A DNA stretch of 63,459 nucleotides from Paraspadella gotoi (Eukaryota; Animalia; Chaetognatha), in assembly GCA_051294375.1 (NCBI GenBank), contig CM119263.1, positions 29,505,134 to 29,568,592 on the forward strand, given 5' to 3'. This document shows, in pieces, positions 3,796 through 62,424 of this stretch. Position 1 is the first letter of the stretch, and every line of letters begins with the position of its first letter. The notes beneath the pieces are model-generated. The model was given only the letters and a program-made list of their open reading frames with translations, did not search any database and was not told the origin of the DNA. The translations under genes and the position numbers were made by a program.

Positions 3796-14691
<10,896 letters not shown>

Positions 14692-33564: not shown

Positions 33565-35425
33565 GAGACGAGAATGATGATTAGTCAATTGTATCTGTGG
33601 ATTCGAATAGATAGATGGGACATTTACAAACTCTGAATTTGTCGTCCGGAGATAATGGAGTTCTCTGATATTCTCCTTGCATCGGGACTCATATCTGGGA
33701 TGCCATTATTGTTATCGAAATTCAACAACAACAAGCGTTTGATCGGAACCTCTCTGTCTTTACAGATAAGGTACTCCTTCTATTATGTGCGTCACATTCT
33801 CTGGTAGATCTCAGTTACAAAATAGAAAAATGCGGAGTTTTCAAGACCGACGGAGCTACAAGACGAACATTACGGGCCAAATTGTAAGAATCAGTAAATT
33901 TGTTGCTCACGAGAAGTTTCGTAAAAATGAAGAAAGCTAAGTGTATGCAACATTGGACAATGCGACCGCATATGAGTGAACCAAGTAGTACCGACGGAAT
34001 GTGAACGGCACACCAAGAAAATGACGACAACAAAATGGGACCCGAATATCGGTTCAGATATTTTATTTTTTTTCGACGTCGATGGAATAGACGCCGCTTG
34101 CCGAAGACGATAACGACACGCGCGGGTTTACGGCATAACGGCGTCGAAAGGCGTCGAAATCACGCAATTAGACTAATGCGTCACGAGTTCTCCTCCCGCG
34201 TTCATAAACCGAGATCGGGTCCTCGCTTTTTGGCGCCCGTCACAGTTTTTCCTCTCTCTCTCTCTCTGCTCTTCTCTCCTCTCTTCTTCGATTCGTGACT
34301 CTCTCTCCTCTTCTTCTTCTTCTCTCTCTCTCTCATCTCTCTTCCTCTCGTCACTCCTCGATTAATTCATCTCTCTCTCTCTCTCTCCTCTCTGCTCTCC
34401 GTGACGGAATGAAGGCCCGGAACCACTTCCGCGGCAAGAACTATGACCATAGCCATAACCAGGTAAAGCCATGGAATCTGCACTGCGCTACCTTGCCGGC
34501 TCGAGAGAGAGGAGGATAGATGAAAAGAAAAAGAAGGAGAGAGAGAAGAGAAGGACATGAGACGAGAGAGAGCTGAGGATCGCGCGCGNNNNNNNNNNNN
34601 NNNNNNNNNNNNNGAGAGAGAGAGACGGTGAGAATGAGTAGAGAGATGAGAGCGATGGTGGAAGAGACGATTGATTGAGAGAGATAAGAGAGAGAGAAGA
34701 TGAGAGAGAGAGACAAAAGAGGAGCATTCGCTGAACCGAGGTTTCATGGAATTTCATTCGGGTTTCGATGTCATTTCTTTTGCTCTTCAATCTTGAAATT
34801 GTCTGTAGTCAAGATTTTCTTTTTCTTTTTCCTTTTTCTTTTCTTTTCTTTTCTTTTCTTTTCTTTTCCTTTTCTTTTCTTTTCTTTTCTTTTTTTTCTT
34901 TTCTTTTCTTTTCTTTACTTTTCTTATTTTTTCTTTCTTTTTTTTTCTATTATCATTCATTTCTTCTCTTTGTTCAACTCTTCTTTCCATTTTAAACCTT
35001 ATCCTTTTCTTTCTTTTTATCTCTCTCTAGAGAGAGAGAGACAAAAGGGAGATTCGCTGAACCGAGTTTCATGGAATTTTCATTCGGGTTTCGATGTCAT
35101 TTCTTTTGCTCTTCAATCTTGAAATTGTCTGTAGTCAAGATTTTCTTTTTCTTTTTCCTTTTCTTTTCTTTTCTTTTCTTTTCTTTTCTTTTCTTTTCTT
35201 TTCTTTTCTTTTCTTTTCTTTTCTTTTCTTTTCTTTTCTTTTCTTTTCTTTACTTTTCTTTATTTTTCTTTTCTTTCTTTTTTTTTCTATTATCATTTAT
35301 TTCTTTCTTTCTTTGTTTCAACTTTCTTTCCATTTTAAACCTTATCCTTTTCTTTCTTTTTTATTTTTCTCTTTAGTGTAATTTTTTTTTCTCTTCTTTC
35401 TTTAACTTCCTTACTTTTTTCTGTT

Positions 35426-39739: not shown

Positions 39740-40082
39740 GAGGCACTCCGAAAGAGGCGCTCCACTAAGGTCGACAAACGTGCTCCCCTGAAGCCGAGAA
39801 AGGCGCTCCTTCGAGGCCAGAAGAGGCGTTCTACAGAGGCCCTCCATGGGGCAAAGAGGCGATCCACTGGGATGTATAGGCGCTCCACTGGGGCAAAGAG
39901 ACGCTCCTTTGGGGCGCTCCACTGAGGCGAAGAGGCGCTCCTTTGAGGCGAAGAGGCACTCCACTGAGGCGAAGTGGCGCTCCTTTGAGGCGAAGAGGCG
40001 CTCCACTGGGGCGAAGAGGCGCTCCTTTGAGGCGAAGAGGCGCTCCACTGGGGCGAAGAGGCGCTCCACTGGGGCGAAGAGG
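39740..40082. repeat. 21-bp GC-rich minisatellite (GGCGAAGAGGCGCTCC[ACT/TTT]GA)
   Basis: About 15 tandem units, most regular at 39925-40080. It explains the repetitive ORFs there. Confidence 0.9.
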
Positions 40083-40215: not shown

Positions 40216-40255
<40 letters not shown>

Positions 40256-42605
40256 AACACGGAGGGACAGTTTAGAAAATATTTTATTATTTTCTATGCC
40301 AGCGCGAGATCGAACGTTTAAAGTTTGAAATTTCGCCCGAAACGAATTGCTTAACTTGAGTTCATGAGAGAAAAGTCACTTTGTATATTTAATCATTTAT
40401 TTAAGAAAAATTCCCCAGAAACTCGTAAAGACAGAGTTTCCTCCGGGCGAAACACATATCATATCAAAAATCTCTCTCGGAATACGAGTGGCCTATGAAA
40501 AATATGAGGGACCGAAAAACAGACCTTAGCATTGGCCAAACGACCTTAAAAAGAGAGGCGAGGCGTGACATCTTTTTCAGACAGAGAGAGAATTAAAGTC
40601 AGCGAGATTGCTCAAGGTTCCGCTTACAAACGTCGCATTTAGCAAAAAAACAACTCTTTCCTATATTGTTCAGTCGTTACTTACAATATTAATTTAATTT
40701 GTACCACAATACAAATTGGGCCGAACTAGGGATTGGTTAAAATCATCTCCATCTGTTTCTAATAATAAAAAAGTATGTACATTTTTTGCAATATTTAAGA
40801 AAAAAAATCATGTCCATTTTTGTCCATTTTCACTTTCGTCCTCTGATTTGAATGCAAAGGAAAGTTGAGAAAAAATTTTTACTTTGGAAATCCGTTCTTC
40901 CTTATCTTATTCACCTCTGGGTAAATTTATTTGCTTAAATCATTTGTAGTTTGCCTATGAATTAATTTTAAAGTTGACAAGTCAAAAAGTTTAATTTTCA
41001 GTTTTTATCATAATTTGTTAAACAAAAATTGTTCAAATTGATTTAAATTAACAGAAAATACAGCCTATTGAATAAGCTTTTAAAACCTATAAAATAATAA
41101 AAAAAACCTGCTTCGTTTAGCCACAAATAATTTTTAAAGACGGCAATTAATTTGTGACTTTTTGTTACTTGCATTAATTTTTAATAGAGATATTTTCAAC
41201 TCATTTATTAGTTTTAAAAGATAATATACATACTGACGTTGATTAATAAAAAAAAACCGCATCCTTTTAATCCAATGGAAAGGGTCAGGACCTGTTTTTT
41301 CTCAGAATCGACAGATTTTGCAGAAAATAAATTCCGCAAAATCTGTCAATTTACTAAATCTGCTAGGCAACCAAACTTTGAATAAAATCTTGCGCTACCC
41401 AAATTTTTTTTACTACGTTACATTTTAAACATTTTCATATATTTAACATAATGTAAACACAGATATAATAAGTGACGGGAGAAAAAGAGAAGAGGAGAGA
41501 GAGACAATGTGTGTGAAAAGGAAGCTGATAGAGGGGGAGGGAGGCGGATTGGAAAGTATAAAAAAAATGGAGTAAGAGGAGATGAGAACAAGAGAAGGAG
41601 AGAAAAGAAGAGATAGTAGGAAAGGAGAGACATAATCGGAAGAAAGAAGAAGAAAGCTGAGATAAAGAAGAAATAGTAAAGAAAAGAGACAAAAAGAGAG
41701 AAGGAGAGGAAAGGGAAGAAGAGGAGGATTAAGGAAGAAAGAGTGACAGAAAGAAGAAGAAAGAAGGGAAAAAAAAAAGAGAGTGTAAGAAACAAAAAAT
41801 ATTATGTGTCATCTTTTTCCTGTAGAGTCCTGTGAATCTAAATGACGTTAAAATTCTTATGAGTCTACGCAGTCGTTAAAAGTATGTTGTTCTTACCATG
41901 AAAAATCGCCTGTACTTTTTCTTAAATTAAGCAGATAAACGAGGATATTGATTGTTTGTCGCGAGAGAAATCATGTTCTTACGATATTTTAAGCATGAAA
42001 TTCATCCTAGTGTGCTCTACCTTACAAGTAAAAGATAACTATAGCCAACCGTTTTTTTAACTGAAGAATGTCCTATATTTATCAGCGAGATGAAAATAAA
42101 TGCAAATTATTCCAATTTCAAAATCATTGTCTAAAATACCCGAAGGGGAAGTAGAGCCTCAAGTCAAGATTCCGACAAAATCCTGTCAGAGCTGCGAGCA
42201 GCTTAAATAATTGTTGAGTCATCGAACAGTTTTTTAGGAAAAAAAAATTGGAACCTTTACTTTTTATCTGAATATTTTAAGGGGCGTTTTAGACAGAATC
42301 CTTGTACAGCTTAACTTGAAAAAAAACTGTTTTTGAAAGAAAAACAGGCATTTACGAATAATACTAAATTTTAAGGACTGCAATTCATTTTGTGAAATCC
42401 TTTCTTTTCGTTGTGTTTTGTATTGAGATAAAAAGTTTTAAATGTATTAAACAACGATTTATTTTTTAAATAATGGACATGTTTTACTGGACTTCAATGA
42501 CAATTTTACCTATTCTTTTCTGTAATTTTTATATTTCCCCGTCGCAGGAGACTCTTAGTAATTTACTAATAAGAGTCATTGTCTTTGACCGAATTTAACC
42601 CAAAG

Positions 42606-45600
42606 ATGCCGCGAGAACAGTTCTACACTGATGGCGAAAAAGACATTTTCGTTGGATGATTGCGGTGAAGCAATTTGACCGTCATGGTTATAGAATTGAT
42701 CAAATTCACTCTGGCCGGCTGAACAAAAAAAACCCTACGACGAATCAATGTGGATGGAATGGTCTTGCTACAATTAATGAAACGATTTTAAAGTTTAAGA
42801 ATACGAGGGTTGAAAAAAATTTTTTACAAAGGGAGACTAATTCCGAATCTTGAGAAAGCCGATTATTTTATTTTTGAAATAATGTTTCAATATTCATATT
42901 GAGCAAAGAAAAACAAGACCTTATCGACAAAATTCAGCTGAAGAGTTACGATGAAAACCTTTCTACCACAATCGAAATCAGTGATCAGGAACTCGAAGAA
43001 AATTTGTCAGAAATCCACGAAATCGTCCACAAGTTATTTGACGATCCGAAACAAAAAGAAAAATGGTGGAGTTATTTTCAAAGACTCAAAGAGGAGCCTT
43101 TGGACGAGACGAAAGGAGGTAAGAAATTCTCTAATACTTTAATTAATTTATATATACTAAAGTGACCCAGAATACCGTTCTGATGGTATGGATCGATGGA
43201 CGGTATGGATCCATTGGATTCACTTGATAGTGGATAGCCCTTGTTGTTAGTAAGTTCGGATCCGGCGAGCGGCCCGTCTCTCTTTGGCAATGGATAGATA
43301 TTAGATAATACAATATTGTGATAGTACAATATTATGTTACCCTCACAGGGTAATTGCGCATCGAAATAATAACCACCGTAGGCTAAAGTTTAATATCATG
43401 TCTTTACCATACAAATTTGGTTTCCTTGAAGGATTTTTTACTATGAACCAATACCGTTGGTTTCGTATTAATATTGCGATTCAAGATGGTGGAAGAAATA
43501 TGCTTAAGCAACTGGTACAAATAGAACTGCATAAAAAATATAAATTGAGCTTTGATAACAAACTATGGGAGAGATGGTGTATTGACAACGATGATGAATT
43601 AAAAGAATCTCGGTTTTATTCGTCGCAAATAAAGGTCATTATAAATGGAAAAGCTATACCAGATTTCGAATTTATAAACGTCTTTTTTCTTTACGATGTT
43701 ATTATCTTAATAAACCCAAATCGAAATCTGGTTGTGCGGCGCTCGGCAGAGTTAAAACAGAAAACGGTTAATCTTGAGTTTGATATCGACGAATCCAAAT
43801 TCAATTCACTTTTCGACGATTTATTTAAAATCTGCAAGTCTCTATTACACGATATTGATAAAAAAGTGTATTTGGATTGTAAGAGATACTTGGAGTACAT
43901 TAAGATTCAACAGATTGACGGAGATCAACTACCCCCAAGTAAGTTAAAAAAAGTTTGGTTGATAAATAAGCCATAGCGTTTCAGGCTAACTTACTCTTCT
44001 CTACTAACTGAGCTTTTTTTAGTATTTTCTGGTTTTACCATGCTCCATTGCTAATGTGATAGTATTAGCATAACCCCGCTAAAGGCAGAAGTTAACTTAC
44101 TGAGAGTATGTAGCCCATAAGACAATGATACATGCAACGCCTCCTGGCATCCCTGGGCCACAAATTAATACATAATTAATATTTTTATTGCATTTTGTCT
44201 TCAATGACATTATATTTACTTTCTTACCAGGTTCCATTGCAACATCTACAGGACAACGCTTTACTATTGTTTCATCACTCTTAGATAAACACACCTAAAC
44301 AATCCCGTAGTTTTTGAGGGCAAAATTGCTGACAAAGTGACAGTAGCTATAAAGTCAATACAACTGTGATACAAGGAAAACATTTACAATTCAGCGAACA
44401 GTGTTGAGATAATTCGTAAGTTTGACAGACATCAAATCTGATTCATTTTCTTTGGTGATGCAAGGACGAATGCCAGGGCAGACCGACAGTTGGATATCTT
44501 TTAATGGAGAAATGCGAAGCTACTTTGAGAGACGTGCGTCAATGGTTTTGAGCTACCCGGACAACCTGATTTAAAGAAAGGCAGTCACTGGAACTGGCAA
44601 AAAATCTTTTGACTGGTTTAGCGTACTTGCACACGGGTATAAGACCTATTGTTCACAGAGATATTAAACGCGGATAACTGTTTTATAAAGATAGACGCAA
44701 GAAATAATACAATCACAGGAAAACTCGGTGACTTTGGGGTCAGTAAAGAAATGAGTAGTTTTGTCAATATGAAACAACTGCCATCCATGGACATGAATAT
44801 TATAGATCTCCAGAGCTTTTGCAGTTTCATTTGGAGTCAAAGTAAAATTAACACCAGCAGAACATCATTTTTCGGAATGTTTTTTGCACTCGGGTGTACT
44901 CTGGGAGAGTTGTTTACAGGAAAAACATCCATTTTTAGAGAAACAAGCGAGTATACCTTTAATATTTCAGAATAATATTAGTGATGGAAAAATTAATTTT
45001 CTAACCTTTTTTGAAATACCCGTATGAAGCTAAAATAGGAATGTGCAATCTCATACTGGCCATGACCTATTTTACAGCGACTAAATAGACCCACCGCAAG
45101 TAAATGCATGGAGCATCTATGTATTTCAAGATCCTACACACAATACAGAAAGAGCGAATAGAGTCAATCAGTTACTGAATGAATAAAGGACCAAGAAGAA
45201 AGCCAAATATCATTCAACAGTGATAATGAAAACTCAGAATTGATCTTGGGATGTAACGGAAACTGGCTGAAAAGTTTCCCACCAATTTCATCCTTACTTG
45301 ACTGGAAGAGCGAGGTAAACTAAGCAAATATGATATCGCCCAAGCTTCTGAGCTTCGGCGTTGTTTGAGAAAACATCTTCACACATGCGGTTTAGTCCCT
45401 CTGACATTGAGGAAAGTAGTGGAATAACTCAACCGAGACAAGAGACATCCATAGTACTTTATACAAAATATACCCTTGGTTGGATTGCCACGACTTGTGG
45501 TTTGATCAAGTTCTATGTGACAAACTTGATATTTTTGGGGAAATTTCAATACGAGTTAGAGATACAGATGCATCAAGAATTGAAAGAAAAAAATGCCATT

Positions 45601-46257
45601 CTTCCTTTGCAAAAAGATAATGAAATTTTTATTGAGGGAAGAGAAAAAATTGTAATTAAGCAAGAAAAAGTGTTCGCTTTAATTTCTGTCGGAAACATCA
45701 AAAAACTACTTCGTTCAAAGAAAAAAAGCAACTTTCTGATTTCCAACTCCTTGGGAGACACGTTATCTGACGAAGACTGGGTTTTCGATGGATCGACGCT
45801 GCGGGCAGAAAAAATCAGGGAGCTTAAGATCTCTCTCGTAAGCAGAGAAAGATTCCAGATGCAAGAGATGGAACTTGAAGCAAACTGTGATTTGACGATC
45901 GCCGAGCTCGTCGCTAAAGCCGTAGAAAAATTGCCCCTTGACTTCAAGAAAAAGATCAAATTGATGAGGTTGCGAAGTTCGTACGATAGGTTGCTGGATC
46001 CTAAGAAGACCCTGGAGGAGCAAGCCGTCNNNNNNNNNNNNNNNNNNNNNNNNNNNNNNNNNNNNNNNNNNNNNNNNNNNNNNNNNNNNNNNNNNNNNNN
46101 NNNNNNNNNNNNNNNNNNNNNNNNNNNNNNNNNNNNNNNNNNNNNNNNNNNNNNNNNNNNNNNNNNNNNNNNNNNNNNNNNNNNNNNNNNNNNNNNNNAG
46201 AACAAATCAGAGGGAAGCGATGAAGATGTGATCGAATGTGGCGATTTGTTTGAGTAG
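42606..46257 (+). CDS. Multidomain protein: 2x DZIP3-type HEPN-like, IRE1/RNase L-like kinase, KEN-like RNase, ubiquitin-like; frameshifted in this assembly (sequencing errors or pseudogene)
   Basis: Exons 42606(ATG)-43118, 43432-43938 and 44231-46257, joined by phase-1 introns (donors GTAAGA, GTAAGT). Kinase motifs: VVFEG..VAIK (44343-44354), HQNLIHF, MEKCEATL, GLAYLH...VHRDIK (HRD 44654), GDFGVSK (DFG 44730), YRSPELL, FALGCTL..GKHPF, LILAM...RPTA...H. Next comes NWLK...KYDIAQASELRRCLR.TSSH (KEN-like), then ELKISLV...LTIAEL...MRLRSSYDRLLDPKKTLEEQAV (Ubl-like). Confidence 0.7.
43432..43938 (+). CDS. Intact exon encoding a DZIP3-type HEPN-like helical domain (copy 2)
   Basis: Open 507-nt phase 1-1 exon. 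The pattern YRWFRINIAIQDGGRNMLKQL...SQIKVI...FEFINVFFLYDVI...IDESKFNSLFDDLFKICKSL resembles DZIP3-like HEPN consensus by eye; no Rx4-6H motif. Confidence 0.55.
44300..45125 (+). CDS. IRE1-like protein kinase domain with multiple indels
   Basis: Subdomains II-XI are readable across frames, with IRE1-like features (FDRHQNLIHF, CEATL, HPF...NI, RPTA). Confidence 0.85.
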
Positions 46258-46565
46258 TTGACGCTGCATCGAAAAAATTTGTGTGTGACTATATCTGTAT
46301 GTATTCAATCATTAAATTTTTTGAAATTTAAATAGGTATGTCTTTATTGTTTATACCTATTATCTAGTATTCAAAAAGATTCAATCTTAAAGTTAACTTT
46401 TTGAGCGGAAAACTAAAAAAATAAGATCGGTTCATCAATGTGCATTGGAATTACGTCTTTTATTCCTTGTAGTTTTAGAATTTCTTGAAGGCGGCGCAAA
46501 CAGTCACTAAGATTCAATGTTTTTTTCCTGTCTTTACAAATAAGCAACCAACTATAGACGCCACG

Positions 46566-47145
46566 TGACTTCAGAAAAAGGATCAATATTCATGAGGTTG
46601 CGAAGTTCGACGATAAAGGTTGCTTGGATCGCTAGAGAGGATTTTGTGATATGCCCTGCTGGGTTGGGAAGCGTCTGTGAGGGGATGCAGAGATGGGGCT
46701 AGTCGCGTCTGAGTGTTATCGGACGATGGGAGTCGTTCTCCTGCTGTTTATGCCTTTCGATTCGGCAGGAGAAGATGAAAGAGGAGAACACAATCAGAGG
46801 ACGATGACAGAATGTGATGAATGGCCGCGGTTTGTTTGAGTAGTTTTGTTGACGCTGCCGCATGAATCATAACATTTTGTGTGTGACTATATCTGCTGTA
46901 TCTGATCATTAGACTTTTTTGAAATTAAATAGTATGTCTTTATTGTTATCATATTACTAGTATTCAAAGATTCAATCTTAAAGTAACTTTGGAGCGGAAA
47001 CTAAAAAAAAGATAGTTCATCAATGTGCATTGGAATTACGTCTTTTTTTTTCTCTTGTAGTTTAGAATTTCCTGATAGGCGGCGCAACAGTTCACTAGAT
47101 CATGTTTTTCCTGTCTTTTAAAATAAGCCAACCAACTATAGACGT
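46566..47145 (+). other. Error-rich duplicate of 45938-46560 (3' end of the kinase-KEN-Ubl gene)
   Basis: Shared strings gacttca..aaaa, tgaggttgcgaagttcg, tttgtttgagtagtt, caatgtgcattggaattacgtc and caaccaactatagacg, with scattered 1-bp indels. Confidence 0.8.
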
Positions 47146-48842: not shown

Positions 48843-50372
48843 CCTCCGCAGTCTCAAAGAAAGGAACTTAATCAATCCGCGCAAAAAATCTCGAACAAAA
48901 GACGCGATTTTGGATCCGAATCACGTGCGCGTACGACGAGCGTGCACTTCCAGGCGATTCACACGTACGCACGCACGCCAGTCCAGGAGCGGGTTTACGT
49001 GCGCATGATCGACCGAAAGACGGTCTGCGTGTAAATTTGGGCCAAACGTAGAAAAATGATAGCACCGGTTGGAGGCCCCGGTTGCTTGGTTAACCAATAA
49101 AAAAATTTTGTAAAATGGGTTAACGGTTAGTAAATTANNNNNNNNNNNNNNNNNNNNNNNNNNNNNNNNNNNNNNNNNNNNNNNNNNNNNNNNNNNNNNN
49201 NNNNNNNNNNNNNNNNNNNNNNNNNNNNNNNNNNNNNNNNNNNNNNNNNNNNNNNNNNNNNNNNNNNNNNNNNNNNNNNNNNNNNNNNNNNNNNNNNNNN
49301 NNNNNNNNNNNNNNNNNNNNNNNNNNNNNNNNNNNNNATCTCTCCACCCCGCAGGAATTTAACACACGAAGGGGAGGACAGTCTTATTACATATTAGTTT
49401 TTATTTAACTATTAATTAATGGTAGAGGCAACATAATTTATTTATCGGAGGCAGGGACCAAGAAGACGGGTTTAATTGTATAATGATAATTGAGGATGAG
49501 ACCCTGAAGGAAGAGAGAGAGAGAGAGAGAGAGAAGGAGAGAGAGAGAATCGCTAAACGAAGGTTAAAAATATCGTCTTCGCTCGATCGTTTATAAAAGC
49601 GATTTTCTCTTTTCAAAGTCGATCGTCGTTTGACCCTCGATTTGCTCGTTGCAGACGGCAATGGCAGGTGGACTTGTGCAAGAGGTCAGACCAAGAGGTC
49701 GCAATGAGGATCTAAAATTAGCGACGCATCGGATTTGAGTCTTTGAGGTCAAAAGTCGAAAAAGGTTTTTCGTGGATGAATTTATGACCATTTCTTCTTT
49801 AGCTTTTTATTGGGAGAAATTTTCTGGCAATGAGATGGCAAAAGTCGGTGGCAATTGCCAGTTTATACGGATCTTAAAACGATTGTTAGATAAACGAAAA
49901 AATGCACGACGTCTAAAGGATATTTTCGTCAAACATTTATTTCGATTCGAATTTCGTTGCGTTTGACTTCATTTGTTTTTGTCCGTCGAATCCTTTTGCT
50001 TGAGGCTCCATTTAGGGGACATCGTCGTCGTCGTCATCGTCGTCGTTATGATCGTCGTCGTGGTTTTCGTTGTCGCTGGCGTCCGTGTTGCTCTCATCGT
50101 CATCATCGTCGTCGTCGTCGCCTTTCTTATGGCTGTTGTTGTCGTCGTCGTCGTTTTCGCCGTCGTATTGAACGTCGTCGTTGCTTTCGTTATCGCTGGA
50201 ACTTTCTGTCGTCGTTATCGTCGTCAACATCGTCGTCGTCTTCGTCGTCATCATCGTCCTCGCCTTCGTCAAAATTTCATTTTTGTCAATTATCATACGA
50301 ATCGATTTTTCTCTTTTGTTTATTAAATCGACGGATTTTTTCCGTATTTTTTTTCCCGACTTCGATATTATC

Positions 50373-50453
<81 letters not shown>

Positions 50454-50857
50454 GTCGTCGTCGTCGTCGTCATCATCATCATCGTCATCGTCATCGTCGT
50501 CGTAGTCATCCTCTTCCTCGTCATATCACTCGTCAAGTGTCACCGAAATTTCCTTTCATGGTAATAAAAGCTTTCTCGTCATCATCATCNNNNNNNNNNT
50601 CATCATCATCATCTAACAAATAAACTCCTGATCGTTATTTTCTTCATAGTCGTCGTCGTCGTCGTCGTCGTCGTTGTTCTCTCTCCCCCACTCCCCCCCT
50701 CTCTCGGCTGAGAAATAAAACGGTTGAAGCCTTTTTTTCCAAAACATTTGAGGATGATATTTTTTTCTCGCTCGTTGACTTTTAATGGGCGAATTGGTAA
50801 ACAAGGAAATGGGGCGAAAGTTTATAAAAAATAAACAGAAAATAAACAAGGAGACGA

Positions 50858-50900
<43 letters not shown>

Positions 50901-51041
50901 TCATCATAATAAGAAAGTCGAGGAAGACGACAAGTGACGTGAACGACAACGACAACGACAACGACAACGATTAATGTGATTCTGTTTCGGGTTTTAGTTT
51001 GTGAATTTAAATTGAGCTCGAAATTACTCTAATACATACAC

Positions 51042-54984: not shown

Positions 54985-56600
54985 GAAGTAGGTCGAAAAA
55001 AGGTTTTAATAACACCTCGTGGATGAATTTTATGACCATTTCCTTCTTTACGACGACCTACTTTTTGTATTCCATTTTATTTCTGAAGGTTGAAGACAGC
55101 CAAAAAATTAATCGTCTGCGGGTCCAGAGCAAGGCAAAGACTGTTTTCCTCCGAACGGTATTGTCGAGTGTCCATAGAGCACACAAAAGTCGGTAGGAAT
55201 TGCCAGTCTTATACAACCGCGACCTCTTTCAGTAAACCACCGAAGCAATTGTACCTAGATAAACGAACAAAATGCACACACGACGTCTATAAGGCCACTT
55301 CACAAAAGAACTTCTGTTTACGTCGGGACAAACATTATCCGTTTCGATCCGAAAGTTTCGTTGCGGGTCCGCGACCTTAATGAGCTCTTCATTTTAGTGC
55401 TGTTCGGTTCGAGTGTCGAACACCGTTTTGGAGAGGCGAATCCTTTTGCTTGAGGACTCACCCGCACCTTCCTCGGGGGACAGTCGTCGTCGAGTATGTC
55501 AATGTCGTCGCTTACGTGAAATCGCTGCGTCGGGGTTAGTGACGCGTTGTAGTCTTAGTGACGTCGCGCGGCTGTATGCGTCCGCACATCCCGTCCGATC
55601 CAAGTGAGGCACGGAGCGGTACGGTGTCGCGCAGCCTGGAGATCGTGTTATTGGCGGCTGGAGTTGTCGTCGTGACGGTACACGTGTCTATATCGCACGT
55701 CGTATTGAACGTCGTCGTTGCTTATCGTTATCGCGTGATGGAACTTGCTGTCTAGTCGTTTGATCGTCGTCAACATCGCGTGTCTTCGTCGTCATCACGT
55801 CCTCGCCTTCGTCAAAATTTCATTTTTGTCAATTATCATACGAACTGCGATATTTTCTCATTTTGTTTATAATCGACGGATTTTTTTCCGTATTTTTTTC
55901 CCGACTTCGATATTATCTTCATCATCATCATCATCACATCATCATCATCATCATCATCTATCATCATCATCATCATCATCATCGTCGATCGTCGTCGTCG
56001 TCGTCTCAATCATATGTCATCGTCATCGTCGTCGTAGCCATCCTCTTCCTCGTCGTATATATCACTCGTCAAGTGTCACCGAATATTTCCTTTCATGGTA
56101 AATAAAGCTTGCTCGTCATGCTACCATCAATCATCATCATCATACATCATCATCATCAATACATCATCTAAAAATAACATCCTGATCGTTATTTTCTTAA
56201 TAGTCGTCGTGTCGTCCGTCGTCGTCTCGTTGTTTCTCTCTACTCCCCCCTCGCCCCCTGTCTCGGTTGGAGAAATATAAATATCGGTTTGAAGCCTTTT
56301 TTTCAAAAACATTTGAGGATGATATTTTTTTCTTCTCGCTCGTTGACTTTTAATTGGGCGAATTGGTAAACAAGGAAATGGGGCTGCGAAAGTTTATAAA
56401 AAATAAACAGAAAATAAACAAGGAGACGAACGACGAACGACGAAGCGACGACGACGACGACGACGTAGATCATCATTAATAAGAAGAGACGAGGAAGACA
56501 GAGCAAGTGACGTGAACGACAACGACAACAGACAATTCTTAGTAGAACAACGAACAACGACTTCAGAGATGTGATGTATCTGGTTTTCTTCGGTTTTAGC
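54985..56600 (+). other. Error-rich duplicate of ~49755-50990
   Basis: Colinear shared strings (cgtggatgaattt.atgaccatt, cgccttcgtcaaaatttcattttt, aacatttgaggatgatattttt) with dense insertions. Confidence 0.8.
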
Positions 56601-61186: not shown

Positions 61187-62424
61187 CAATTCTTTTTCCT
61201 CTTCAGTCGTTATTCAGTTCAGTAAAGAGACACAAAATCGTTTTTTCTTTTTATTATTCTTTTTGTCTTTTCTAATTTCAGCTTTGTTATTTCTTTTTGT
61301 CAAATTTTATCTNNNNNNNNNNNNNNNNNNNNNNNNNNNNNNNNNNNNNNNNNNNNNNNNNNNNNNNNNNNNNNNNNNNNNNNNNNNNNNNNNNNNNNNN
61401 NNNNNNNNNNNNNNNNNNNNNNNNNNNNNNNNNNNNNNNNNNNNNNNNNNNNNNNNNNNNNNNNNNNNNNNNNNNNNNNNNNNNNNNNNNNNNNNNNNNN
61501 NNNNNNNNNNNNNNNNNNNNNNNNNNNNNNNNNNNNNNNNNNNNNNNNNNNNNNNNNNNNNNNNNNNNNNNNNNNNNNNNCTCTCTCTCTCTCTCTCTCT
61601 GACGACGACCAAATCCTCAGTCAGCGAAATCCACTTTAGTTATGCGTCTCTTTCTCCAGTGCCCTTTTGCCACCTGTGCTCTTTTTCCACCCGTGCCCTT
61701 TTGCCACTTGTGCCTTTTAGCCACCTGTGACATTTTTCCACTTTTGCCCTTTTAGCGCTTTTACCATTTTTGCACTTTTGCACCTTTGCCAACCATTTTT
61801 TGGTGTTTAGCCACCAGATGATCACAAGCGCTATTCCTCCTTTTCTCTTTTGCTTTATTCTATTTGTTTTGTTCTTTTGCTATTTTGCTACTTTTCTCCG
61901 TTGCTTCTTGTCCAATGAATGCCACCCTCATTCCGTTTCTCCAGAACCCATTTCCCCCCCCCCGAGCCAAACCCCCGGATGTTCATTTCTCGCCCCGAAG
62001 CCAGAAAACCGCATCCGGGTTACGCTCAAGAGTCTTTCTCGTGACAATCGCAGATTTTCTAGTCGCTTCAATTTTCACGTGAGAGTGACATTGTGACGGC
62101 GACGGTTATATTCACTGGTCAGTGACATCTCGACCTCCGCTTATATGACCTTTTTTTAGTGACCTCGTCTCGTGACCTTGAGCTTTGACCTTCCGAGTTT
62201 TTGACTCAGATGTTTGACCCTCAGGGATTATGATCTTTGACCTCGGCCGAGATACGACGACGCTCAGGCTTTCATCTTCTTCGGCATCAAGGTCGGAGTC
62301 TTGGTGAGTGGCATTATGAAAGGCATCAAGAGTGGCATTGTGAGTGGCATAAAGAGTGGCAGGGTTTTTGTAAAATTTTTGATGTCCCTGAAGTGTAAAA
62401 AATGGATAAAACCATTATAAAATG

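Follow-up and report, generated by a model that had tools for sequence, protein, structure and literature searches.

A three-exon chaetognath gene for a candidate IRE1/RNase L-type kinase-KEN protein with a duplicated helical N-terminus

The analysed window is a 63,459-nt stretch of the Paraspadella gotoi genome (contig CM119263.1, positions 29,505,134 to 29,568,592), and on its forward strand lies a gene whose first two exons each carry a copy of a helical domain, and whose last exon carries a kinase, a KEN-like segment, a possible ubiquitin-like (Ubl) segment and an acidic tail (Table 1). The gene is real and its three exons are spliced, as the earlier note had proposed: a 2032-nt contig from a public sequencing run (X9, presumed to be RNA) skips 43116-43430 and 43938-44231, both stretches are bounded by GT..AG, and the donor letters, acceptor letters and phases are consistent. 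The splicing evidence comes from this single contig, and the RNA nature of its run is a guess; the intron 1 letters between the two sides of this contig are unread, and its length leaves no room for that intron. An apparent skip at 42863-43031 was rejected as an intron, having TA..AC ends, a DNA run with the same skip and a contig long enough to account for its letters. The predicted protein has roughly 985 residues.

Table 1. Features of the kinase-KEN gene, in window coordinates
Feature	Position	Strand	Remarks
Exon 1	42606?-43118	+	First copy of a ~170-residue, mostly helical domain; putative start ATG 42606
Intron 1	43119..43431	+	GT..AG, phase 1; donor GT at 43119; skipped by X9 contig 25
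Exon 2	43432..43938	+	Second helical-domain copy; error-free ORF of 169 codons
Intron 2	43939..44230	+	GT..AG, phase 1; precise skip in X9 contig 25, where record positions 779 and 778 are neighbours
Exon 3	44231-46257	+	Kinase, KEN, Ubl-like segment, acidic tail; stop at 46257
Ser/Thr kinase domain, IRE1-like	44270..45123	+	Pfam Pkinase; colinear with IRE1 profile
KEN (Ribonuc_2-5A-type) RNase domain	45124..45500	+	Home-made IRE1 KEN profile; read-supported indels
Possible first ubiquitin-like (beta-grasp) unit	45613..45810	+	By eye only
Probable ubiquitin-like domain	45811..46029, continuing into N gap	+	Sub-threshold profile matches
Assembly gap	46030..46198	+	169 N; true length ~82 nt, frame-preserving
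Acidic C-terminal tail	46199..46257	+	Ends G-[D/G]-L-F-E-stop; weak ribosomal P-stalk tail likeness

Contigs from public runs identify the frameshifts in the window as assembly errors, and both splicing and frame were repaired with contigs from three studies, one of which is perhaps the assembly's own source. As assembled, exon 3 carries dozens of indels that disrupt its frame, and over 44240-45361 the comparisons with X1 and X4 each show 32 gap letters; X1 contig 6 spans this same stretch in 1118 nt, so the frame is continuous from kinase to KEN. A deletion at 44670 restores the kinase catalytic loop, and 45186-46029 runs without a stop after 13 read-derived indels. In exon 1, an X1 contig over 42737-43060 has four gaps and falls 4 nt short of the window, consistent with a passage from frame 1 to frame 2, and exon 2 shows no gaps against pieces from X1, X2, X4 and X9. 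The N gap is bridged by contigs in all three of three runs (a length of about 82 nt is implied by where X4 contig 16 lies in its record) and the tail beyond it shows no differences from the X4 contig. With the read-based corrections, some 3 kb can be read through to the stop in one open frame.

The IRE1-type kinase that had been read in the last exon matches Pfam Pkinase above its cut-off (34.8 bits, E 1.5e-8, cut-off 31.7; one raw frame, with X at stops). Its VAIK, HRD-x-K-x-x-N, DFG and APE-like motifs are present, the Gly-rich loop is degenerate, without GxGxxG, and the alphaC Glu position falls in an indel zone. KEN domains cut RNA without metal, leaving a 2',3'-cyclic phosphate, and do so only as sensor-paired kinase-KEN dimers, a picture given in part in PMC3710099 section 6 and PMC10400998. 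The KEN-like segment claimed directly after the kinase is borne out: it lies in the same frame, and in the read-corrected sequence the two are colinear with positions 30-385 of an IRE1 kinase+KEN profile, at 85 bits, a score inflated by the positioning of the kinase joins by eye. KEN alone has a modest score of 11.1 bits, with none of 5000 shuffles as high (8.6 bits in an earlier run, 1 of 2000 higher), against a home-made profile from 24 of the 30 IRE1 loci fetched, and is only ~25% identical to the fetched IRE1 KEN domains. A search of raw frames and fragments gave no match to Pfam PF06479, and PDB sequence searches returned generic kinases for the kinase and nothing for KEN or Ubl. The motif quoted in the earlier note, ELRRCLR.TSSH, was wrong in detail: it is off-frame after the Arg, and the read-supported frame is R-N-I-F-T-H, giving an R-N-x3-H motif at 45368-45386 with a conserved Tyr upstream. 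As the KEN motif is set out in section 6 of PMC3710099, it is R-x4-H with a polar residue after R, and R-N-x3-H with that polar residue occurs in both gene copies; the catalytic motif of the predicted KEN domain is intact. No paralogue or canonical IRE1 lies elsewhere in the window.

Behind the KEN domain, a ubiquitin-like segment had been claimed, which has weak support in sub-threshold profile matches and none above a Pfam cut-off. The second unit matches Ubiquitin_5 at E 0.003-0.005 (17-18 bits against a cut-off of 23.2) and YukD, also below cut-off, at E 0.046, its last strand falling in the N gap; in an Atlas search with 45577-46029, eight of the ten best family matches belong to one clan (0.80-0.83, a lead only). 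Compared with 40 of 95 ubiquitin-type sequences, this unit showed no significant likeness to ubiquitin (180 of 300 shuffles); a model of the segment had a pLDDT of 36, and fold searches gave no usable match. The possible first unit had no Pfam or NCBIfam match and was not significantly similar to the second (3059 of 5000 shuffles) or to ubiquitin (175 of 300); a tandem-Ubl reading had no support from these comparisons. The P-stalk C-terminal motif combines an acidic cluster with a hydrophobic GLFD-type end (PMC11624264), and a post hoc comparison of the acidic tail with it scored 10 in copy 1 and 18 in copy 2, against a self score of 85. These scores were reached by 1711 and 307, respectively, of 20000 shuffles of the tails themselves, and by 1 and 0 of 181 other ORF ends.

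The earlier note had also placed two similar DZIP3-type HEPN-like domains ahead of the kinase; their similarity to each other held, and the HEPN_DZIP3 label is unproven. A frameshift-aware alignment shows exon 1 to be homologous to exon 2 (0-1 of 1000 shuffles as high); when the clean second half of exon 1 was compared by itself, its likeness to exon 2 was not significant (1221 of 5000 shuffles), and a score of 97, obtained with a joined exon 1, was discarded as circular. Neither exon matched a HEPN family in Pfam, whose filters drop weak matches. A language-model search of the Atlas gave leads only, below its threshold of 0.9: the best exon 2 matches (0.87) are to DUF4559- and HEPN_DZIP3-bearing clusters, and of the best five rows three carry HEPN_DZIP3 or HEPN_Swt1 and a fourth DUF4559 (0.84-0.87). 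Our own bacterial Swt1-HEPN profile (24 of 27 listed bacterial loci, one row, L169, from the wrong strand left in) was matched as well by 223 and 987 of 2000 shuffles of exons 1 and 2, with an hhalign probability of 0.3%. By eye, no R-x4-6-H stands at the expected helix in error-free exon 2 or in the clean second half of exon 1, so the pair, if HEPN, would be catalytically inactive. A single-sequence model of the N-terminus (pLDDT 45) found its best fold match, at low confidence, in generic helical hairpins (Z 5.6). We take the size, helix pattern and C-terminal acidic/PLD-like segment to resemble DZIP3-type HEPN. A PADLOC match to 'AbiEii' at 42878-43117 (E 4.7e-7) was set aside: the model fits the N-terminal ~135 residues of ~310-residue frames in cyanobacterial genomes, and the same acidic helix also fits models for CowN, ZorA and arsenate reductase, which are unrelated. 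Scanning viral contigs for a DZIP3 motif yielded only two matches, off-frame and due to chance, and PF18738 was matched in none of five bacterial genomes.

No transmembrane stretch was found, in agreement with the earlier note, in a Kyte-Doolittle scan of three frames of exon 1, exon 2 and 45577-46029 (highest 19-residue mean 1.73, in exon 2). Exons 1 and 2 hold no signal peptide, luminal sensor or transmembrane helix, the spliced contig joining them straight to the kinase behind a putative 5' end, and no ankyrin repeats were matched in the exon 1 frames or exon 2; the absence of both a luminal and an ankyrin sensor, as earlier described, thus stands for this region. Judged from its sequence, the protein is apparently soluble and likely cytosolic.

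Two copies of the gene are seen in the read contigs, and the rows shown differ by 19 non-synonymous and 6 synonymous codons, which fits diversifying or relaxed selection; the ratio is near neutral, making relaxed selection possible. None of the 25 changed codons examined is a stop, and the one large indel between the copies, 12 nt at 45611, is in-frame. The KEN Tyr, Arg, Asn and His are identical in both copies and nearby codons differ, the sole synonymous change near these catalytic residues being in the Arg codon. That catalytic motifs are kept at ~25% identity to IRE1 KEN requires long purifying selection on those sites. Four protein searches found no homologue, which is weak evidence since the queries were parts and none the full corrected protein: none of 877 candidates among longer proteins or 24 near-length proteins (E<=10) for exon 2, which also had no match in the prokaryote genomes and viral contigs searched, and none of 299 for the kinase frame with X at stops. 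A phmmer search with 45577-46029 over 1.84 billion representatives gave one match, a low-complexity repeat protein, which was discarded. The earlier claim of lineage restriction is therefore supported, with part-length queries, by the lack of a close relative in large protein collections, and the blank searches would fit a fast-evolving, lineage-restricted gene.

Non-canonical kinase-KEN proteins include the Irl kinases of Dictyostelium and the IRE1-like expansions of teleosts. Like RNase L, the protein is an apparently soluble kinase-KEN enzyme with a swapped-in N-terminal module and the same type of catalytic motif; unlike RNase L, a pseudokinase, it has no detected ankyrin repeats and keeps HRD and DFG. 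It resembles IRE1 (ERN1/Ire1p/IreA; PF00069 plus PF06479) in the KEN domain adjoining the kinase and in R-N-x3-H, the upstream Tyr and the HRD, DFG and VAIK-type motifs, and differs in the lack of a visible luminal sensor or transmembrane helix, the duplicated helical N-terminus, the Ubl-like segment and acidic tail after KEN, the degenerate Gly-rich loop and the low KEN identity. RNase L, as described in PMC10400998, joins ankyrin repeats, a kinase-like domain and the RNase and occurs in jawed vertebrates; the same paper sorts RNase L/IRE1 RNase homologues into ten clades, a kinase domain being present in most. Fusions of KEN and kinase with ankyrin, CCCH, UBI or BRCT are listed in PMC3710099 Table 1, and KEN expansions in Oikopleura and monocots are noted in the same paper. 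The term novel system in the earlier note was overstated, because varied kinase-RNase architectures, KEN-ubiquitin fusions included, are already published in these sources; the gene is a new variant among kinase-KEN proteins and, like other non-canonical kinase-KEN and solo-KEN proteins, reuses the pair in one lineage without an ER sensor. Tandem HEPN-like domains with kinase-KEN-Ubl were not found among the architectures listed in the passages of this literature that were compared. Arabidopsis IRE1C is a sensor-less IRE1 with a developmental role (PMC6883098); it too is an IRE1-type kinase-RNase without a luminal sensor, and unlike this gene keeps its transmembrane helix and ER location and has no replacement domain.

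The N-terminal pair is likened to DZIP3/hRUL138-like (PF18738) and Swt1/CXorf38-type HEPN (PF18731, DUF4559) by domain size, helical character and the sub-threshold Atlas leads, and unlike these lacks a Pfam match and R-x4-6-H. Swt1 is listed in PMC3710099 Table 1 as a pair of inactive HEPN domains joined to a different RNase; the DZIP3-HEPN fusions listed are with TPR, RING, ankyrin, CARD, NACHT, DEATH and LRR, with no kinase or KEN among these. Section 9 of PMC3710099 predicts lineage-specific expansions of KEN and other HEPN to be defensive and reads motif-less HEPN as RNA-binding, and in nine cnidarians DZIP3-HEPN is, LRRs aside, the commonest NACHT partner (PMC8260672).

We consider the chances about even that this spliced protein is an IRE1/RNase L-type kinase-KEN enzyme acting as a likely cytosolic, latent RNA-cleaving defence effector switched on by its duplicated N-terminal domain. 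The tandem domains, probably catalytically dead HEPN-type folds, would recognise a trigger, either nucleic acid or protein, and gather the enzyme into clusters. Cleavage of viral and host RNA by paired KEN domains may follow and halt translation, and Ubl and acidic tail could serve targeting or turnover. On the side of defence are the lack of close relatives, the prediction in PMC3710099 and the DZIP3-HEPN/NACHT pairing of PMC8260672; on the other side are the absence of a HEPN Pfam match, the modest KEN score, the degenerate Gly-rich loop, the near-neutral codon differences and the sighting of only two copies, too few to show an expansion. A bolder form, in which a dead HEPN pair senses RNA or a ligand in an independent invertebrate analogue of RNase L, with a live KEN domain and a Ubl plus P-stalk-mimic tail that engage the translation machinery or bait stalk-attacking pathogen factors, is distinctly unlikely. 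Were the N-terminal pair instead an unrelated helical duplication, a scaffold or constitutive oligomeriser rather than a HEPN or sensor, and the 'Ubl' maybe another fold, the kinase-KEN effector would still be real; the missing HEPN profile support and a Ubl below cut-off and unlike ubiquitin speak for this, yet the Atlas rows lean to HEPN families, as lead only, and size, helix pattern and acidic segment presumably echo DZIP3-type HEPN, leaving it very improbable.

A non-immune role, as a cytosolic stress or housekeeping RNase (RIDD-like or in ribosome surveillance) with host mRNA or rRNA as target and guided by Ubl and acidic tail, is possible but unlikely. Kinase and KEN align with canonical IRE1 throughout and HRD and DFG are kept, in contrast to the pseudokinase RNase L; the weak likeness of the tail to the P-stalk motif (PMC11624264) and the developmental precedent of IRE1C (PMC6883098) point the same way. 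However, such genes are usually conserved and no relative was found, the copies differ mostly non-synonymously, and the tail likeness is post hoc and weak. The codon differences, degenerate Gly-rich loop, weak KEN score and lack of homologues would also suit an IRE1-derived chimera of recent origin, transcribed and under relaxed selection, whose frame is intact and whose function is slight or absent, but the long open frame, the changed codons free of stops, the in-frame indel and the retention of all kinase and KEN catalytic motifs despite the divergence from IRE1 make it distinctly unlikely. A divergent membrane-anchored IRE1 paralogue, its signal peptide or transmembrane helix in an unseen upstream exon, could use an acceptor-like CAG just before 42550, and the start codon is putative; yet exons 1 and 2, where IRE1's transmembrane helix would have to lie, have none, the X9 contig extends 175 nt further 5' with letters that agree with a loose end of DNA run X2 and give no sign of a splice, and 40240-42600 holds no convincing hydrophobic ORF (highest 1.9, in a 33-codon AT-rich frame), which renders this reading extremely improbable.

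The origin of RNase L has been argued, in PMC10400998, to lie in a pre-existing kinase-RNase that gained an ankyrin sensor. The present gene seems to be an independent instance of that step, with another module at the N-terminus and additional C-terminal parts. Without a sensor role for the N-terminal pair, the gene would be one more divergent IRE1-like paralogue, of modest interest. If the RNase L-analogue reading is true, it would represent an immune switch that works by RNA decay outside jawed vertebrates, needs no 2-5A and consists of a single protein, with three HEPN-superfamily folds in one chain. The foreign-RNA defence idea is directly testable with the yeast growth and RNA-decay assay used in PMC10400998, and if the trigger is foreign RNA, lineages without RNase L would have built their own kinase-gated RNA-decay defence.

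The gene is real, and its product belongs to the kinase-KEN superfamily as a variant of a known kinase-RNase theme. Before correction the gene is open in just two places, exon 2 and the 3′ portion of exon 3, and elsewhere it is split over three frames; these breaks are assembly errors, because contigs assembled from public sequencing runs differ from the window by indels common to the runs. Over 44240-45361 the contigs of runs X1 and X4 each show 32 gap letters against the window, whilst X2 (the same sample as X1) shows 24 and 8 in two overlapping pieces, and all four runs share 11 of the 12 indels listed. The locus is present in nine public runs from three studies of a single organism, and the best of these runs may be the source of the assembly itself. 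Contig 6 of X1 covers 44240-45361 in 1118 nt, which by length alone keeps the frame from the exon 3 start to the helix preceding the KEN motif. The earlier note had proposed a spliced three-exon gene, and this was borne out by a 2032-nt contig of X9 joining exon 1, exon 2 and exon 3 (to 45011), with both GT..AG introns skipped and phases matching; the splicing is thus read from one contig of one run, whose RNA status we guess. Stretch 45240-45562 was repaired with 11 edits, which tally with X9 contig 17, where there are 11 gaps and one letter fewer overall (the edits being eight from listed indels, two of these listed for X1 only, and three deduced from loose-end letters); with two more listed indels applied, 45186 to 46029 is stop-free. 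The N gap was bridged in three of three runs, X4 coordinates giving 82 nt and a frame preserved to the stop at 46255-46257. The product is estimated at ~985 aa from a putative start codon.

Features of the gene and its surroundings in the window
Feature	Position	Strand	Remark
Exon 1	42606?-43118	+	
Exon 2	43432-43938	+	
Exon 3	44231-46257	+	
Kinase	44270-45123	+	
KEN	45124-45500	+	motif 45368-45386
Probable Ubl	45811-46029	+	
Tail	46199-46257	+	
HMG-box fragment	4507-4809	+	Pfam E 8e-5; within multi-exon gene 4507-14000
Downstream motif of HMG-box gene	13543-13974	+	
Tandem array	5566-5871		~45-nt unit, within HMG-box gene
Tandem array	39835-40082		21/42-nt unit, ~2.5 kb upstream of gene
100-codon frame	62115-62414	-	Pfam Auxin_BP E 7.7e-5, 22.9 bits (cut-off 21)

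The scaffold in the window is eukaryotic, rich in microsatellites and interrupted by many N gaps. At 46520-47144 the 3′ end and UTR of the gene recur in noisy form (46199-46560 vs. 46785-47144, 82%, 30 gap openings), which is likely a raw-read scaffolding artefact, a local duplicate being conceivable; gap-rich near-duplicates at 50157-50961 and 55693-56535, and at 34702-35372 (86% and 92%), are probably artefacts of the same type. The HMG-box fragment and its downstream motif look like the repressor Capicua, and they are the chief pointer to a host that is likely an animal. The Auxin_BP match, unexpected in an animal, is possibly a cupin exon or chance.

The kinase reported in the last exon was recovered by Pfam (Pkinase, 34.8 bits, over the cut-off, in one raw frame with X at stops) and carries VAIK, HRD-x-K-x-x-N and DFG motifs, its Gly-rich loop lacking GxGxxG and its alphaC Glu position falling in a zone of indels. 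For the KEN-like segment placed directly after it, we fetched 30 metagenomic loci with the IRE1 KEN motif (Pkinase plus Ribonuc_2-5A in all three checked) and built one profile for kinase+KEN (18 sequences) and one for KEN (24 sequences). The KEN set omits four loci broken by introns and two that were short; from the kinase set, 12 loci were dropped for their short upstream frames. Reconstructed exon 3 is colinear with the kinase+KEN profile over positions 30-385 at 85 bits, a figure that by-eye joining of the kinase pieces has inflated. The KEN part by itself reaches 11.1 bits, a score matched by none of 5000 shuffles; an earlier and shorter version of it had 8.6 bits (one of 2000 shuffles higher). 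On raw frames there was no significant match to the KEN profile (six frames) and no KEN match from Pfam; the best pairwise identity to the fetched KEN domains is ~25% over 100-120 residues. The motif, R-N-x3-H with a conserved Tyr upstream, fits the rule for active KEN domains, R-x4-H with a polar residue after R, in the portion of PMC3710099 consulted (section 6). The kinase appears to be IRE1-type, a label drawn from its colinearity with the profile and from the KEN beside it. Six fetched IRE1 loci (L005, L012, L015, L016, L020, L025) extend 220-410 residues past the KEN motif vs. ~60 in most, and in the three checked Pfam placed no domain above cut-off in that extension.

Aligned with frameshifts allowed, exon 1 DNA matches the exon 2 protein from end to end with a score of 81, reached by 1, 0 and 0 per 1000 shuffles under three frameshift penalties, against 25-41 for 12 control stretches; therefore exons 1 and 2 each hold one copy of a duplicated domain, and the two upstream domains are alike, as the earlier note held. 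Their layout presumably fits DZIP3-type HEPN. Pfam found nothing relevant on exons 1-2, the bacterial Swt1-HEPN profile had no match in either domain, and the predicted fold was unusable for identification. In Atlas, a language-model cluster search, 11-38% of the members in the nearest clusters carry DUF4559, HEPN_DZIP3 or HEPN_Swt1; with scores of 0.84-0.87 these are leads under the evidence line of 0.9. If HEPN, the domains would be inactive, because neither copy shows R-x4-6-H; that the pair is instead a non-HEPN scaffold is very unlikely. The claimed lack of a TM stretch stands for exons 1-2 and the C-terminal part, where none was found, and a hidden TM exon is highly improbable.

Every run examined holds two versions of the gene, alleles or paralogues, at depths of ~61 and ~90 in X1. 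Non-synonymous to synonymous changes among the codons listed are 8:2 in the Ubl, 5:3 in exon 2 and 6:1 in the KEN core, a ratio close to neutral that speaks against strong purifying selection overall. None of the 25 changed codons listed becomes a stop, the sole large indel between copies is 12 nt, and the catalytic Tyr, Arg, Asn and His are identical in both. The differences would fit a defence gene under diversifying selection, and they would also fit relaxed selection; a decaying chimera is unlikely. The Ubl is probable from its sequence, with sub-threshold matches to two beta-grasp families, and Atlas leads to USP7-type Ubl clusters, but it is not detectably similar to ubiquitin itself. 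A further unit, guessed by eye at 45613-45810, gained no support from similarity and profile tests. At the C-terminus an acidic run leads into G-[D/G]-L-F-E, resembling the ribosomal P-stalk tail motif (PMC11624264, part consulted) in a weak, post hoc test: its score was reached by 1711 and 307 per 20000 shuffles (copies 1 and 2) and, among the ends of 181 other ORFs, by 1 and 0. The tail of the second copy is the nearer to the P-stalk tail. An RNase linked to stress or the ribosome is rather unlikely, and it is improbable that this is an RNase L counterpart of separate origin, sensing through dead HEPN domains and ending in a tail that mimics the stalk.

Of the earlier proposal of an RNase L/IRE1-type system with neither sensor, kinase-KEN membership stands, as does the absence of the defining sensor features; a wholly novel system does not, since varied kinase-KEN fusions are published. 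Dictyostelium Irl kinases are a further comparison. The part of PMC6025073 consulted makes no mention of them. In the portions consulted of the other papers, KEN occurs with kinase plus ankyrin, CCCH, UBI or BRCT and shows lineage-specific expansions (PMC3710099), RNase L/IRE1 RNase homologues form ten clades with ankyrin gained independently (PMC10400998), IRE1C is sensor-less yet TM-anchored (PMC6883098), and DZIP3-HEPN occurs in cnidarian NLRs (PMC8260672). The gene's domain combination was not found in the literature searched; InterPro and the PMC10400998 supplement lie outside that search, and the supplement may bear on novelty.

We give about an even chance that the product is a cytosolic RNase kept latent until it oligomerises, likely sharing its way of working with IRE1 and RNase L whilst lacking the sensor features that define both. 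The kinase-KEN dimer mechanism is a property of the family. Here the duplicated N-terminal domain, as the putative sensor, would bind a trigger, the kinase lobes would then come together the way they do in IRE1 and RNase L, and the paired KEN domains would cut RNA, perhaps in an immune context.
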